Assembly: GCA_021789555.1 (NCBI GenBank)
Contig: JAJYJK010000006.1
Location: 36,445-100,444, forward strand
From: Nitrospirota bacterium
GTDB lineage: Bacteria; Nitrospirota; Thermodesulfovibrionia; Thermodesulfovibrionales; JdFR-88
Length of the DNA: 64,000 nt
Reading direction: 5' to 3'
The notes beneath the pieces were generated by a model. It made no database searches. It saw nothing but the letters and a program-made list of their open reading frames with translations, and had not been told where the DNA came from. The translations under genes and the position numbers were made by a program. Of this stretch, positions 48,133-54,063 are shown in pieces (positions within the stretch are counted from its first letter, which is position 1; every line of letters starts with the position of its first letter).

Positions 48133-48160
48133 TTGACAAGGCGGCAAATTATAGTAGCAT
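48133..48160 (+). promoter_or_regulatory. candidate sigma70-type promoter for the cupredoxin/Cyc2-like operon
   Basis: TTGACA (48133-48138), a 16-nt spacer, then TAGCAT (48155-48160), inside a 390-bp AT-rich spacer. Sequence inspection only. Confidence 0.25.
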
Positions 48161-48278: not shown

Positions 48279-49088
48279 ATGAAAAGAAACGCAGGACAAA
48301 AAATGCGTGGCATGTTCCGGTCAGGATTCGGACCCGCGCAAGGGGTATTCGCCATGATCAAGAAAATCGTCATATTGACAGCGCTGTTTTTCGTTTTGGG
48401 TATCCCCCTAAACTCCTTTGCCTACCAGGCCAGGGCGGTTTCAAACGGCGGGACGATCTCCGGCACGGTCATGTTTACCGGCGCCCCCGTCCCCAAGGAC
48501 CCTGTGATCCACCCGACCACCAATGTGAATTATTGCGGCAGGACGCTTCCGGCGCTGAAATACCTCATTAAAAACAGAAAAATTCAGAACGTGGTCGTCT
48601 TCATAAAAAATATCCAGGCAGGCGCACCGGCCCCCAGGCAGGCGTCCGTAGTCGACAACCTGAAATGCGCCTTTGTGCCGCACGTGGGGATCGGCTACCT
48701 GGGAAGCCCGCTCATTTTCAAGGATTCCGACCCCCTGTTCCACAATATCCACACCTATATCGAGGACCGTACCTATTACAATGTCGGCCTGCCTTTCAAG
48801 GGCGCGCAGGTCACAAAGGTCCTCACAAGGACGGGGATCATCGAGATAACCTGCGACGCCCACCCGTGGATGCGCGGATATCTCTACGTGTTTGACAATC
48901 CCTATGCCGCGATGACCGGACCGAACGGCGAGTTTATGCTAAGAGACGTCCCGCCCGGCACTTATACTGTTGAGGCCTGGCACGAGGCGCTCGGGACGGT
49001 CGATCTGGGCAATGTGAGGGTGGAAAGCGGAAAGACCACAACGATCAAACTGGATTTCAAAAAAGGCCCGAGCAGGCATGAATTTTAA
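48279..49088 (+). CDS. secreted cupredoxin (amicyanin-type type-1 Cu site) with CarboxypepD_reg-like beta-sandwich regions
   Basis: The signal peptide begins at the alternative ATG at 48354 (MIKKIVILTALFFVLGIPLNSFA). Copper-ligand pattern: FHNIH...CDAHPWM (C-x2-H-x2-M, as in amicyanin CTPHPFM). C-terminal PPGTYTVEAWHE segment. Confidence 0.6.
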   Translation: MKRNAGQKMRGMFRSGFGPAQGVFAMIKKIVILTALFFVLGIPLNSFAYQARAVSNGGTISGTVMFTGAPVPKDPVIHPTTNVNYCGRTLPALKYLIKNRKIQNVVVFIKNIQAGAPAPRQASVVDNLKCAFVPHVGIGYLGSPLIFKDSDPLFHNIHTYIEDRTYYNVGLPFKGAQVTKVLTRTGIIEITCDAHPWMRGYLYVFDNPYAAMTGPNGEFMLRDVPPGTYTVEAWHEALGTVDLGNVRVESGKTTTIKLDFKKGPSRHEF

Positions 49089-49116
49089 TCTCCAGTCAAA
49101 TTCCAAGGAGGTCCTG

Positions 49117-50565
49117 ATGAAAAAGACCGGATTTTTTCTTGTCCTGATCGCCTCTTTTTTCGTCTTGTCCCTGGCGCAAAACTCGGAAGCCGTCCCCTCG
49201 TATTCGCGCCAGCTCAAGGTATCCTGCACGGCCTGCCATACGATATGGCCGAACTTGAACCAGTACGGCAGGCAGTTCAAGGTGAAGGCGTATACGGATG
49301 CCTCTCCCGACTGGGGCGTCATCTCCGAGGATAAACTCAATCTATTTTATGTCTTCCCGATTTCAGCGCGCATCATGTTTATTCCCTACCAGATTGAGCA
49401 GGACGCTGCCGGGTCGTCTCCCAGCGCGGGAAGCCCCGGGTACGGCAATGGCGGTTACAATGCCAACTCAACGGAAATTGACAATATGCAGCTCTTCATC
49501 GCGGGCAGGATTTACAAGTATGCCGGCGTATTCACCAGCATAGAGAGCGGCTCGGTGCCAAATGGAGACACTAGTGGAAACTTCAATCTGGCGGTCGCCA
49601 AAGTCGCTTTCGCATACCCGGTGTCCGAGGGCAACACCCTTGGAGCGGTGCTTTTTTGGGGCTTGCCCACCGCCGCAGACCCGTTTAACAGCCTTGGCGG
49701 CTGGGACAGGGACATAGCCACGCCTGACGACGAGACCCTCCCGTGGGTCCTTACCAAGGGCTGGACGGGCAGTTTTTGGAGCGGAAGCAACTATGGCGCG
49801 GTAGTACATGGATACTTCCTGGGCAACAGGCTCTATGCGGCCATCGGCGGCATGAGGAGCGGGGACGTCGCGGACGCAGACAGCGGAAATGCCGGCTTCA
49901 TGCACCAGTTGCCAGGCACCCCCTTTAAAACCGCAAAAGGGGTGACAGGTAATCCGTTTGGGGGGTATGCGCGCGCCGCATGGGACCAGGAACTATCTAA
50001 CGGGGCCGTCACCTTCGGCGGCACGGTCTACACCGGGCGTGAAGACGTGCTTGCCTCAGACGGCGTATCCATCGTCAGCACACACGTAAACAGGCAATAT
50101 ATCGACGCCTCGCTGGAACAGAATTTCGGAGCTGACCACCTGGTGGAGGCAAAGGCGATTTATGGATTCGGCCAGGAATCGGGGCTAGCGCCGCTGGAGG
50201 CAATCTCGGCCGGGAAGCCTGGCACCTTGGGACCAGTTGCCGGCGGGACTCCTGAAGACAAGAGGAATTTCAACGGCGGGGCAATAGAGGCGGACTACTT
50301 CTACCAGAGGACCTACGGCATAGTGGGCCAGTATAACTGGGTCACCAACTCCAAGGTCCAGGCCGCTGATTTCGATCCCGCGACCAGCCAGCACACATGG
50401 CTTGTGGGCCTGAACTATCTGCCGTGGCTCAATACCAAGATACAGTTCATCTACGCCAATGTAAGGAGCAATTACCTGACAGACCCGTCCGGTACCGTTA
50501 CCGGGGCCAATGGTTCTTCCGAGACGGACAAGATATACAAAGTTCTGGTGGACGTGGCGTTCTAG
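49117..50565 (+). CDS. cyc2: Cyc2-like fused monoheme cytochrome c - outer-membrane beta-barrel porin
   Basis: The ATG at 49117 follows AAGGAGG. Signal peptide ...AQNSEA. A single CTACH haem motif 13 residues into the mature protein is followed by PNL (PxL). About 440 aa of Gly/Tyr/aromatic-rich alternating sequence ends in a terminal Phe (VLVDVAF). Confidence 0.6.
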   Translation: MKKTGFFLVLIASFFVLSLAQNSEAVPSYSRQLKVSCTACHTIWPNLNQYGRQFKVKAYTDASPDWGVISEDKLNLFYVFPISARIMFIPYQIEQDAAGSSPSAGSPGYGNGGYNANSTEIDNMQLFIAGRIYKYAGVFTSIESGSVPNGDTSGNFNLAVAKVAFAYPVSEGNTLGAVLFWGLPTAADPFNSLGGWDRDIATPDDETLPWVLTKGWTGSFWSGSNYGAVVHGYFLGNRLYAAIGGMRSGDVADADSGNAGFMHQLPGTPFKTAKGVTGNPFGGYARAAWDQELSNGAVTFGGTVYTGREDVLASDGVSIVSTHVNRQYIDASLEQNFGADHLVEAKAIYGFGQESGLAPLEAISAGKPGTLGPVAGGTPEDKRNFNGGAIEADYFYQRTYGIVGQYNWVTNSKVQAADFDPATSQHTWLVGLNYLPWLNTKIQFIYANVRSNYLTDPSGTVTGANGSSETDKIYKVLVDVAF

Positions 50566-50578
50566 AGAGGATATTTTG

Positions 50579-52476
50579 ATGGCGGAGACAACGGTAGGCA
50601 GGGGTGTTTTCAAGGGGATAATAAAATTCCTCGCCATCCTCGGCGCGGGATTTGCCGCCCTTTTCATTCTCAAGGGGGTGCTTGCTGCGCCCACGGCGGA
50701 GGGCTACAGGTTTTTCCCGGTCATAGGCAGCCGGGACTGGATATGGGTCGTCGCGCAGACACACCTCAATTTCGCGGCGTTTGTCCTTGGGGTGCCGATA
50801 TTCGCCGTGACGATGGAATTCATCGGGTGGAGGAAGGCCGACCCGCGCCTTGACCGCATCGCATACGATTTCGCAAAACTCTTTACCCTGGCATATACCT
50901 TCACGGCGCTCATGGGCGCGGTCTTCCTCGTAAGCGTGCCCCTGCTCTACCCGAAGTTCATCTCCTGCATGATGCAGATACTCGGCTATACCTGGTGGCT
51001 CTATCTGTGCGTGATGTTTGCGGAAGTGGTGATCTGCTACCTCTATTTCTATTCCTGGAACCGGATGAAGGAGAAAAAGGGGCTCCATGTATTTCTGGGC
51101 GCGTTGCTGAACCTCTTCGGGGTATTGATCCTGCTCATCACCAGCGTCCGGGTCGGGTTCATGACCACCCCGGCGGGGGTCAGCAAGACCGGAGAGCTTA
51201 TAAACAGGTGGGCGACGATACACACCCATATGTGGCTGCCCCTCAGCCTGCACAGGTTCATCGCGAACATCGTATTCGGGGCGGGGATTGCGGCCGATGG
51301 GCATCCAGCTCATGGGCGGTTTCTTCGCATGGCTATGGGTCATGCAGGCCATGCTCATAGGCGCGATACTCTTCTTCATCAACTATTACCTGTGGATATC
51401 GCTGCATAAGATGCCGGGTGGCGAGCGCTATTTCGGATATGTGAAGTACCTGTTCATAGTTGTCCTGCTGGGGTTCGTGGTATGGGTCACGCCTCATGAC
51501 ATAGCCCTCTCCCTCTCGGGGCCAGGAGGATAGGTTCTTATCACCCGGTCCTTGGCAAACTGGGCGTCATGGCGGCCAAGAACACCGCGGTGATACTTTC
51601 CTATCTGGCCACCTTCCTCTCCTTTTCCATCTTCAGGATGAGCAACAAGGAGCCGGTCGTCTCATGGGCCGGGGCGGGCCGCCGTGATAAGGGGGCTGAT
51701 AATCACCGTCTCCACGGGCGGCGTGCTGTTTCTGGGGGTGCTGGGCTACACCGTCTCCGCCGCCGTAAGGGTAAGAGTGCTCTCCCCCATACAGTTCAGT
51801 TTGTTTTTCGCCGCCATTTTGGCCCTTTTCCTCCTTGACTTCTTCATGTACAGGGGCGCAAGGATAATCGGCGAGCCGCGCTGGGGACAGATGCCCGAAC
51901 GCTCGCAGTACGCGCTCATCGGGATAACCGTCACGTTCACATGGCTGACAATGAAGACCGGCGTGCTCAAACTCGCCCTGATCGTGATAGTCCTAAACCT
52001 TGCCTTTTTGTATATAGGCATCGAGTACCTTCCCCAGTCCGAATCGAGGCCGCCCAAGACGATAGTGCTGAAGCCGGGCATCTCGCAGGCGGACCTCGTG
52101 TCCATCGGCGAGAAGATAGTCTTCGACAAGGGGCAGTGCATGGTCTGCCACAGCGAAACGCCGTCTACAACGGAGCGGGCGCCGGCCATGGCCACCATAG
52201 GCGCCGAAATCGCAAGGGAGGCGAAAGAGCGCGGCATAACGCCGGAGCAGCACCTGTTCGAGTCGCTGGTGAGCCCCGTGGCGTATATCGTGAAAGGGTT
52301 TAAAACATAATGCCCGCCGCCAATGAGTCGCCAACGTCCCTTACGGACGGGGAGATAATCGCGATGGCCGCATACCTGCAGAGCCAGGGCTCAAACGTAA
52401 CGGTCTCGTACCCGGGCTCCGTGCCTCTGCTAAAGGCGGAGGAGGCGAAGGCGGCAAGGGGCGAAAAGGGCAAATG
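50579..52476 (+). pseudogene. cytochrome bd-like oxidase (CydA-like) with C-terminal cytochrome c domain, interrupted by four frameshifts
   Basis: CydA-like N-terminus (AQTHLNFAAFVLGVPIFAVTMEFIGW), many TM segments and a CMVCH haem c motif. The reading frame changes near 51290, 51525, 51675 and 52305. The stitched product is about 630 aa. Confidence 0.6.
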
Positions 52477-52610
52477 AGAACAAATGAAATGAAAAACGGG
52501 AAAAAGAGACGTCATGCCCGAGGCATTAGTCAGGCGCCCTTCTCAAAAAGGAATTTTGAGATGGGTCCTGTTCAAATCAGGCGCGGCATCGAAATGGAGG
52601 GAGCCCGGTA

Positions 52611-53321
52611 ATGCAATACATATTCCCGGCAGTCGCCGTCATCGGGCTTGCAATAGCCATCGCCGCCGCATTCAGGAAGGCCGTTGCCCTGGGCCTCGAG
52701 TTCGGCATGGATGTCGAGGCCGTCTCCGTCTACGACCCCCATTTCCACAGGCGGGCCTTTGAATCGCTGGTAAAAGTCCTCTCCGATGAGGCCCAGAAGT
52801 TATTCAAGTTCAAGGAGCAGGAGAAACTCCATGACGAAATAATCGATGACGGACTGGGAAAGATATACCAGGGCGCCCTGGAAGAGGCCAGGCAGGAGGG
52901 CCTTAAATCCGGGGTGGAGGTGAAGACGACCCTGCTTGCCGGAAAGGCCGCCCACGAGATATGCGAGCACCTGAAAAAAGACCCGCCCTCACTCTTTGTG
53001 GCGGGCAGGTTTGGCGCCCACCGGGCCGAGGAACTGGATATCGGCAATACGGCCGAGAATCTCCTGCGGACGTCGCCCGTCCTGGAATCGTTAAGAACGG
53101 CTGGGAACGCGCTTAAAGGCAAATGCGGGGCCTGCGAATACCGCCTGCTCTGCGGGGGATGCAGGGCCCGTGCGTATGCCCTTCGGGGGGACTACCTTGA
53201 TGAAGACCCGTGGTGCGCGTACGGCACCCGCTGCAGGCGAGGTGATAAAACCTCCAGCGCCCGCGGCGGATGCCGGTCCGGAGACGGATGCGCGCCCCCA
53301 ATGGAGCCGGCAGGCCAGTGA
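52611..53321 (+). pseudogene. chimeric ORF: universal stress protein domain joined to the SPASM tail of a radical SAM enzyme
   Basis: A USP-like core (...[31 protein letters not shown]) runs directly into [33 protein letters not shown]. No radical SAM core is present. Confidence 0.4.
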
Positions 53322-53694
53322 GCGATTAAACCGGGTCCCTTATTTCGTGAGGGCCATGGTAAAGGCGGCGGTGGAGCGCTACGCAGCCGAGCGGGGCTGC
53401 AGCGAAATCACGCCGGAGATGATGGAGGAACTTAAAAGCCGGGTAAGGAGGCCGGCAAAGGCTTTTTTGCTCCGGGTGGCCCGGAGGGGGAATTTATGGC
53501 GGCTGTTCAGCATGCTCTCCGTCGCCGCCGCTGTATTCGTCCTCGTATACCACGGCCTCATAAGGAAGGATTTCAGCGGGCTGGTATTTTTGGTGATACT
53601 TCTTCTGCTTTTGTCGGCGCGCTCCCAGCTCAGGATATGGAAGTGCGCCAGGATATTCGATAAGGTAAAAGCTCAAATCGCCGGCGGCCAGTGA
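53170..53694 (+). CDS. PCP-reductase-like domain protein with C-terminal TM segments (start uncertain; possibly frameshifted continuation of the preceding ORF)
   Basis: [41 protein letters not shown] matches the PCP_red-type domain pattern. Two hydrophobic segments follow. Confidence 0.45.
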
Positions 53695-54063
53695 TGGAAG
53701 GCAGGGTCACATCCGGCAGGATACCGTCAAGGTGCCTGGACTGGCTCGTCGGCAGCCGGCTTGGATTCCTGCGCGACATGCCAAGAGGCGGCCGGAAACA
53801 TGCGCGACAACCCCCGCGCAAGCCTTCTTTATTCAGGGATGAAAACCCTCCCGGGCGGCATGGAGTACATAAGTTTTCAGGTGAACGGCACTATCCGGAT
53901 ACTTGAGAAAGAAAGTGGAAACCCTTATTACAGGTTCCTGCTGGCGTCGAGAAAACTCTTCGAGTTCGAAAAGTTCCACCTCTTCCAGTCCGATTATCCA
54001 TTCGGCTATCTTATCCGGGTGGACGAGGTGCTGGACAAATCCCCGTTTTCGAAGGGCCGCTGA
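53694..54063 (+). pseudogene. pyridoxamine 5'-phosphate oxidase-like remnant
   Basis: The N-terminal piece in one frame ([26 protein letters not shown]) continues in another frame (ATCQEAAGNMRDNPRASLLYSG...). The result is shorter than the family norm. Weak call. Confidence 0.3.

Follow-up and report, generated by a model that had tools for sequence, protein, structure and literature searches.

We examined a window of 64,000 nucleotides (nt) from a Nitrospirota metagenome-assembled genome, or MAG (NCBI GenBank assembly GCA_021789555.1, contig JAJYJK010000006.1, positions 36,445 to 100,444 of the forward strand). On its plus strand lie two adjacent intact genes, one for a secreted type-1-copper cupredoxin (gene 1, 48354..49088) and one for a fused monohaem cytochrome-porin that we predict to be of the Cyc2 type (gene 2, 49117..50565), followed by the remnants of genes that are complete in related genomes. 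An earlier note, made from the sequence alone, had described three consecutive genes forming a minimal electron uptake chain, with a third gene for a cytochrome bd-like oxidase carrying its own haem c domain. The first two genes stand up to analysis, while the third appears to be two separate pseudogenes. Related loci (n=24) came from a scan of GTDB genomes and are cited below by our locus numbers; a Nitrospirota MAG contig from GCA_027328945.1 (locus L001), 99.5% identical to the window, serves as its sister assembly.

The cupredoxin and the Cyc2-type cytochrome-porin

The longest open reading frame (ORF) of gene 1 spans 48279-49088 and encodes 269 amino acids (aa). The likely start, MIKK..., gives 244 aa, and the product is identical to NCBI MDA8171114.1 from a 'Nitrospiraceae bacterium' MAG. 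The ORF contains both motifs, FHNIH and CDAHPWM, on which the description of a secreted protein with an amicyanin-type copper site was based, and the fold agrees with that description. The AlphaFold2 model has a pLDDT of 91.5, and its best PDB matches in Foldseek are amicyanins (1id2, 1sfd and 2gb2; E 1e-6, TM-target 0.68-0.69), followed by plastocyanin, pseudoazurin and AcoP. Among 31 homologues the copper ligands H130, H133, C167 and H170 are invariant and the axial M173 is kept in at least 90%; an alignment of the loci confirms the same ligand set and marks gene 1 as the axial-Met paralogue ('CUP-B').

The search with hidden Markov models had a different outcome. No cupredoxin model in Pfam or NCBIfam matched gene 1 at E<=0.1, the only models to match being CarboxypepD_reg and fn3_3; NCBIfam gave no match at all, and a phmmer search of the PDB reached amicyanin at E=0.61 only. 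Fold and ligands are thus the grounds for the assignment, and on these we identify gene 1 as a genuine amicyanin-like type-1 copper cupredoxin. Like amicyanin, pseudoazurin and plastocyanin, the predicted protein has the cupredoxin fold (TM 0.68-0.72 on the target in Foldseek) and a ligand loop, His...Cys-x2-His-x2-Met, of amicyanin spacing. Unlike them it has about 75 extra N-terminal residues, including two conserved Cys, and a transthyretin-like CarboxypepD_reg domain at its C-terminus (aa 209-258 of the 269-aa ORF by Pfam), besides lacking a Pfam cupredoxin match. Many relatives have a second cupredoxin upstream, in tandem, that is absent from the window. Its loop is C-x2-H-x2-Q, with an axial Gln as in stellacyanin and unlike amicyanin (L005 356-1186; L009 6453-7181; also L010, L015, L021 and L023).

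Gene 2 encodes 482 aa, and its product is identical to NCBI MDA8171115.1, again from a 'Nitrospiraceae bacterium' MAG. Its N-terminus is AVPSYSRQLKVSCTACHTIWPNL, and the signal peptide ends at MKKTGFFLVLIASFFVLSLAQNSEA, where the mature chain begins with VPSY...CTACH. The signal peptide, single CTACH, following PNL and terminal Phe described in the earlier note are all present. The haem motif is indeed the only one and near the N-terminus of the mature chain, but it lies 12 and not 13 residues into it. The full motif string is AVPSYSRQL-KVS-CTACH-TIW-PNL, the proline of PNL standing four residues past the haem His.

Cyc2 has been defined by AxPxFAR[Q/K][T/Y], a single CXXCH, and PxL four residues after it (Keffer 2021, PMC8406198). 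Compared with this definition, gene 2 keeps the A, P, R and Q, has Y for F and S for A, and ends on L. Its family has the consensus AVPS[F/Y]ARQ[V/L/I], never with T or Y at the last position, and none of the 33 family members contains the strict motif. We found the strict motif in 37 of 82 aligned superfamily sequences (the full-length best matches to the family profile, down to about 20% identity), with three residues between it and CXXCH, as in gene 2. G or A stands in place of the PxL proline in 8/33 family members, a single CxxCH is present in 33/33 family members and 82/82 superfamily sequences, and the N-terminus varies hardly at all within the family: AVPS[Y/F]ARQxxKPC[T/S]ACHT.W[P]NLNQYGRQFKVKAYTD. 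By sequence, gene 2 thus carries a variant form of the Keffer motif, not a strict match.

Gene 2 has at least 139 close homologues, nearly all from Nitrospirota/Thermodesulfovibrionales MAGs and annotated as 'hypothetical'. When the family profile was searched against 1.84 billion representatives it matched 2733 clusters at E<=1e-3, 609 at 1e-10 and 24 at 1e-30, and the consensus of the 82 superfamily sequences, AxAVPSFARQTGxxCxxCHTxFPxL, has the same spacing. Judged by these counts and this consensus, the gene 2 family is a small and distinct Nitrospirota clade inside the Cyc2 superfamily. The record names of the superfamily matches include no known iron oxidisers and read only 'hypothetical protein' or 'cytochrome c' (e.g. 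from Desulfurella), and we found no UBA9159 or Nitrospirae entries in the Keffer 2021 supplements.

AlphaFold2 models gene 2 as a barrel with about 16-17 long strands (pTM 0.75), in keeping with the 16-18 strands that had been expected, with the haem-bearing N-terminus modelled at a pLDDT below 50. Foldseek matches it to 16-strand porins (Omp32, PorB, OmpF/C and OprP) at E ~1e-10. NCBIfam and PDB sequence searches gave no match for gene 2, and a Pfam match to NOL10_2nd (E=0.032) was at chance level and was set aside. One homologue (P0034 = HAM50271.1; 45% identity to gene 2, E=2e-110) is labelled 'Cluster 2-type Cyc2 ... Nitrospirae UBA9159' in a 2026 study of Ca. Mariimomonas (PMC13647500) and in the preprint of that study. 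Oxidation of Fe(II) was demonstrated for homologues of Cyc2 (PMC8406198, PMC13647500), in the Ca. Mariimomonas study for another Thermodesulfovibrionia-type Cyc2 (PMC13647500).

Taken together, the variant motif, the barrel model and the Cluster 2 homologue bear out the earlier reading of gene 2 as a Cyc2-like porin-cytochrome, and we predict it to be a cytochrome-porin of the Cyc2 type. Like Cyc2 of A. ferrooxidans, Mariprofundus Cyc2PV-1, Leptospirillum Cyt572 and the Cyc2 of Ca. Mariimomonas, its predicted product combines a signal peptide and one CXXCH near the N-terminus, which follows a variant of AxPx[F/Y]AR[Q] and precedes PxL, with a porin barrel of some 16 strands that closes the chain on Phe. 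The family is unlike these Fe(II) oxidases in that the motif ends in V, L or I instead of T or Y and in that some of its PxL prolines are replaced.

Pseudogene remnants downstream of the pair

Behind gene 2, no single ORF covers 50579-52476, and four frame changes are needed to read through this stretch. The motifs quoted in the earlier note as parts of one CydA-like protein are all present in the DNA, in different frames. In a three-frame translation, AQTHLNFAAF... lies in ORF 50510-51409, CMVCH lies at 51684-52310 in another frame, and MPAANE...AYLQSQG, at 52304-52476, returns to the first frame; stops separate the three.

Mapping onto the orthologues in locus L006 separates the stretch into two parts. 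The first, at 50579..51971 (+), appears to be a pseudogene of a bd-like CydA homologue of the OR-N type; PF01654 (Cyt_bd_oxida_I), the model that had been suggested for checking it, matches the window fragment at E=1e-11 and the L006 protein at 3e-12. Its frame changes fall at ~51291, ~51520 and ~51682, and it is missing residues 240-291 and 519-581 (52 + 63 residues), which removes the invariant His526 and the regions of about three transmembrane helices. The second, at 51951..52476 (+), appears to be a pseudogene of a membrane-anchored monohaem class I cytochrome c, 171-175 aa long in relatives, with a frameshift at ~52306. Three 1-nt frameshifts are found over the two remnants, and the second bd-like deletion joins the bd-like stump in frame to the cytochrome c gene. 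In 12/12 relatives with complete copies the cytochrome c is a gene separate from the bd-like gene, and the L006 orthologue of the window remnant matches PF00034. The CydA with its own haem c domain is therefore an artefact. As judged from the reading frames and the orthologues, 50579-52476 is two pseudogenes, one bd-like and one for a separate cytochrome c, not one fused gene.

The remnants continue beyond the cytochrome c. By L006 mapping, 52563..53078 (+) is what is left of a tandem Usp gene (residues 144-325 of 332), and 53058..53457 (+) is a frameshifted remnant of a NirJ2/AhbD-like radical SAM/SPASM gene with PCP_red (residues 307-439 of 442). At 53458..54006 (+), BLAST and L006 mapping identify a small ORF followed by a PNPOx-like gene without residues 53-148. 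The small ORF, which BLAST groups with the Usp/PCP_red family, is now in frame with the radical SAM remnant. We also noted a chimeric ORF, 52611-53321, in which a Usp fragment runs into the final 56 residues of the radical SAM enzyme. Two cytochrome genes, one for a 267-aa cytochrome c and one for a dihaem cytochrome c that bears an EB_dh haem b domain, are missing from the window altogether. Some 3.4 kb of the window stand where L006 has some 7.3 kb, and the main deletions relative to the intact operon (~156 nt, ~190 nt and ~4 kb) are common to the window and the sister assembly.

Apart from these shared deletions, the sister assembly is without two of the window's frameshifts and has lesions of its own: a TGG>TAG stop at 50745, a 1-nt deletion and a 565-nt deletion. 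Between the two assemblies there are 37 mismatches and 0 indels in 10,694 nt of flanking sequence, against 23 mismatches in 2,800 nt plus five indels in the decayed stretch, a 2.4x higher mismatch density (Fisher p=0.002). The five small indels are all in the decayed stretch, as are both length differences. In the first bd-like segment the assemblies differ by 0 synonymous and 5 non-synonymous changes, including the nonsense codon, and in gene 2 by 2 synonymous and 0 non-synonymous changes.

Compared with L006, the ratio of non-synonymous to synonymous substitution rates (dN/dS) is 0.16 for gene 1 and 0.15 for gene 2. In the remnants it is 0.06-0.15, as in intact genes, and since these values are still low, constraint must have been lost only recently. 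Upstream of the operon, L006 and L007 have the same genes as the window (PolX, DUF72, ScpA, LolA and TsaD) at the same chromosomal site, so the state of the window arose in place. From these comparisons we infer that purifying selection maintains genes 1 and 2, both intact, and that the acceptor arm, meaning the bd-like and cytochrome genes, was recently inactivated. In long-read 'MFD' MAGs, the bd-like gene of L010 (9296-11039) and the Cyc2 gene of L021 (7959-9266) are split into two or three ORFs, which may reflect assembly indels or further decay.

Among 20 other ORFs of the window, Pfam found housekeeping genes only and no further respiratory genes. An ORF on the minus strand at 5174-6091 matches PF25513 (viral coat protein P2 C-terminal domain) at E=7e-10 near the part of the window with the lowest GC content (2001-4000, GC 0.47), and it may be a viral or prophage remnant. 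A promoter-like TTGACA-16-TAGCAT is located 5' of gene 1 at 48133..48160 (+) and agrees with 10/12 consensus positions; it is weak evidence, and a scan of the region showed no excess of promoter and terminator sites over shuffled sequence.

The intact operon and other contexts of its genes

The three gene types of the earlier note do belong together, since the whole operon, with cupredoxin(s), Cyc2, bd-like protein and three cytochromes, is present in 13 of the 24 related loci. The intact order is (axial-Gln cupredoxin), axial-Met cupredoxin, Cyc2, bd-like CydA homologue (581-582 aa), membrane-anchored monohaem cytochrome c (171-175 aa), cytochrome c with four transmembrane helices (267 aa), dihaem cytochrome c with an EB_dh haem b domain (~480-540 aa), two Usp genes, NirJ2/AhbD-like radical SAM with PCP_red, and PNPOx-like protein. 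The supposed minimal system of three components is thus not what relatives encode: up to two cupredoxins, three c-type cytochromes, Usp and a radical SAM protein take part in the intact arrangement. In all 27 loci with enough flanking sequence, the cupredoxin adjoins Cyc2.

A hydropathy scan gives the intact bd-like orthologues 14 transmembrane helices, and His62, in the motif AQTHL(N/D)F and equivalent to His19, is invariant in 12 orthologues. The protein is 64-88% identical across Nitrospirota, including magnetotactic ones, and the operon in relatives contains no second CydA/CydB gene. By sequence we place it in the OR-N branch of the cytochrome bd superfamily. In common with OR-N proteins and 'TO_1' of Nitrospira and Ca. 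Manganitrophus, it has a PF01654 match confined to the N-terminal helices, periplasm-facing haem b (EB_dh) and haem c subunits, and no CydB; the conserved His19 equivalent and about 14 transmembrane helices are as in OR-N1/N2. As differences, the operon is linked to cyc2 and cupredoxin genes, or to nos genes in magnetotactic Nitrospirota, a linkage of which we found no account in the searchable literature, and the copy in the window appears to be non-functional. We noted that the N-terminal haem c of the dihaem c and EB_dh protein in L006 (12635-14251) has a sub-threshold NCBIfam match to Leptospirillum cytochrome 579 (E=1.5e-11, 44 bits vs a cut-off of 280). In the periplasm, cytochrome 579 acts as acceptor for the Cyc2 homologue Cyt572.

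The cupredoxin-Cyc2 pair is also found directly downstream of cbb3 oxidase genes. In L022 (4266-9182) and L028 (3855-8269), Pfam confirmed ccoN and a ccoO/P fusion ahead of the pair; in L024 and L025 the gene upstream of the pair has only homology to the ccoO/P-like protein of L022. These cbb3-linked pairs are from Deltaproteobacteria-type and other MAGs, and in L022 a copper-ATPase-like gene follows. In L002 (7485-9110) and L008 (2203-3873) a methyl-accepting chemotaxis protein (HAMP + MCPsignal) is encoded directly after the pair. Next to other Cyc2-superfamily genes stand a small cupredoxin of COX2-like type in L029 and a small cytochrome c in L030.

The same module of cupredoxin, bd-like protein and three cytochromes also occurs, without Cyc2, within a complete nos operon: in L032 and in Ca. 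Magnetomonas plexicatena, a closed genome (L033; CP049016.1 424055-445806). In Magnetomonas the order is nosZ-nosR-nosD-nosF-nosY-[module]-nosL, and the insert between nosY and nosL also holds a Cys-less cupredoxin-like and DUF1573 protein, a transglutaminase-like protein and a thioredoxin-like protein. The Cys/His/Met ligand loop of the cupredoxin in this setting was checked in the Magnetomonas copy (L031) only. No nos accessory genes were found within 8 kb of the Cyc2 loci (24 related loci).

Proposed electron flow and its alternatives

In our judgement the locus is probably a decayed copy of a Thermodesulfovibrionia-type operon, which likely encodes a chain from Fe(II) to an oxidant, with its front half kept. 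In the intact operon, Cyc2 at the cell surface would accept electrons given up by dissolved Fe(II) or by some other external reductant, and the periplasmic cupredoxin would collect them, like rusticyanin in Acidithiobacillus. The membrane-anchored c-cytochromes would then relay the electrons to the bd-like complex, which would reduce O2 or another small oxidant. The parts are annotated from the evidence above; the direction and chemistry of this flow are the ones we infer as most likely.

The nearest known layout is the rus operon of Acidithiobacillus ferrooxidans, cyc2-cyc1-orf-coxBACD-rus, encoding Cyc2, rusticyanin, Cyc1 and an aa3 oxidase. Both bring together Cyc2, a periplasmic blue-copper protein, c-cytochromes and a membrane terminal complex. 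They differ in the cupredoxin, which here is amicyanin-like with CarboxypepD_reg, not rusticyanin, and is encoded immediately 5' of cyc2; in the terminal complex, which is bd-like (13 loci) or cbb3 (2 confirmed, 2 inferred) and never aa3; and in the hosts, which are neutrophilic Nitrospirota of an anaerobic lineage, with the terminal part pseudogenised in the window. As far as sequence can tell, the operon resembles the rus operon in layout and is not a member of it. The rus-like layout and the cbb3 linkage favour, for intact relatives, the inward route from Fe(II) through Cyc2, cupredoxin, cytochromes and bd-like complex to O2. With the acceptor arm dead in the window, any activity of the pair there must feed an acceptor encoded elsewhere, or else the pair is being lost.

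Several points weigh against this reading. Thermodesulfovibrionia are generally regarded as anaerobes. The proteins of this operon family are all known from sequence and models, and placement in a Cyc2 cluster follows one published label, that of the 45%-identical homologue. The pseudogene call comes from two metagenome assemblies, possibly from related samples. In L002 and L008 the cupredoxin-Cyc2 pair is kept without an oxidase in the vicinity, which, with the pair kept in the window after the loss of the oxidase, suggests that the pair can use other partners, and the nos operons carry the module without Cyc2. For OR-N bd-like proteins, O2 reduction has never been demonstrated (bioRxiv 10.1101/2021.01.16.426971). 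As the OR-N proteins have no quinol site according to the literature and are uncharacterised, and given the nos link, the bd-like complex is thus at most a candidate terminal O2 reductase.

Two readings take these points further. In the first, the CarboxypepD_reg cupredoxin would be a universal adaptor between a Cyc2 or NosZ side and an OR-N or cbb3 side, and the pair in the window would work without O2; we give this a minor though real chance. By the same estimate it is conceivable, if rather unlikely, that OR-N is not simply an O2 reductase and that the pair could couple Fe(II) oxidation to the reduction of N-oxides in an anaerobe, or run in reverse.

In the second, which we rate at nearly the same low level, the bd-like complex is a portable, periplasm-facing redox module with NosZ or Cyc2 as its partner and not an O2 reductase. 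Also on the unlikely side, it could then serve NO or N2O reduction, oxidant scavenging or electron relay, with Fe(II) oxidation coupled to a non-O2 acceptor in anaerobes. The presence of the cupredoxin, the bd-like protein, cytochromes c174 and c266 and the dihaem c/EB_dh protein between nosY and nosL shows that the module is portable and associates with another high-potential periplasmic enzyme, so the function of the bd-like complex may be one other than O2 reduction. The lack of a quinol site in OR-N proteins and the anaerobic character of the host class agree with this. Yet the bd-like protein retains di-haem site residues of O2-reducing bd oxidases (the His19 equivalent), a true O2 reductase, cbb3, takes the bd-like position beside the pair in other MAGs, and the nos co-location could be mere co-regulation under micro-oxic conditions.

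We regard it as improbable that the electrons run outward, leaving the cytochromes by way of the cupredoxin and then Cyc2 for an acceptor outside the cell, for example Fe(III), which would make the system a metal reductase. Many organisms with Cyc2 homologues are not known as iron oxidisers (PMC7029218), Thermodesulfovibrionia MAGs have been tied to iron reduction through other cytochromes (PMC8478452), and the pair persists without an oxidase arm here and in L002 and L008. However, no quinol-oxidising subunit is visible in the operon, every Cyc2 so far tested is an Fe(II) oxidase, and the pair is linked to cbb3 oxidase genes. Type-1 copper is moreover of high potential and ill-suited to the reduction of Fe(III) minerals at neutral pH.

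A further question is whether the organism carries an intact operon that assembly or sequencing errors have broken up. The source is a metagenome-assembled genome, split genes are also seen in the two long-read MAG loci (L010 bd-like, L021 Cyc2), and the window and L001 disagree at several 1-nt indels. Nevertheless, the deletions of ~156 nt, ~190 nt and ~4 kb are in both assemblies, there are 0 indels over 10.7 kb of flanks, and the nonsense substitution, together with five non-synonymous changes against no synonymous one in the bd-like gene, indicates relaxed selection and not random error. We consider such errors very improbable as the explanation. The intact three-component chain with a fused haem c bd-like oxidase that the earlier note proposed has hardly any probability left: the three kinds of sequence do occur in the expected order on one strand, but with four frame changes, deletions of 52 + 63 residues that include transmembrane helices and His526, a cytochrome c that is separate in 12/12 complete relatives and two cytochrome subunits missing, the frame analysis refutes it unless raw reads show both assemblies to be wrong.

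Each part of this system, the Cyc2 superfamily protein, the type-1 cupredoxin and the OR-N bd-like complex, is of a known kind, and an OR-N bd-like or TO_1-like complex has already been described (PMC9040806). In the literature we found no paper on the linkage of Cyc2, a bd-like protein and a cupredoxin in one operon, and no description of the CarboxypepD_reg-cupredoxin partner or of the nos-embedded version. A search on Cyc2, bd-like proteins and Nitrospirota returned only a comparison of Manganitrophaceae, which gives no account of this cluster, and PMC12442345 and PMC10654088 have nothing on it.

The case shows how motifs read across frames turned a pseudogene into an apparent 'novel fusion'. 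Because Cyc2 serves as a marker gene for neutrophilic iron oxidation, marker surveys would call this genome Cyc2-positive despite its dead linked acceptor complex. The conserved operon in relatives is a compact candidate pathway that bears on the function of OR-N proteins, a question since 2010, and its context supports the view that OR-N complexes draw electrons from the periplasm. It would also extend the potential for iron oxidation to Thermodesulfovibrionia-type lineages, which are usually treated as sulfate reducers.

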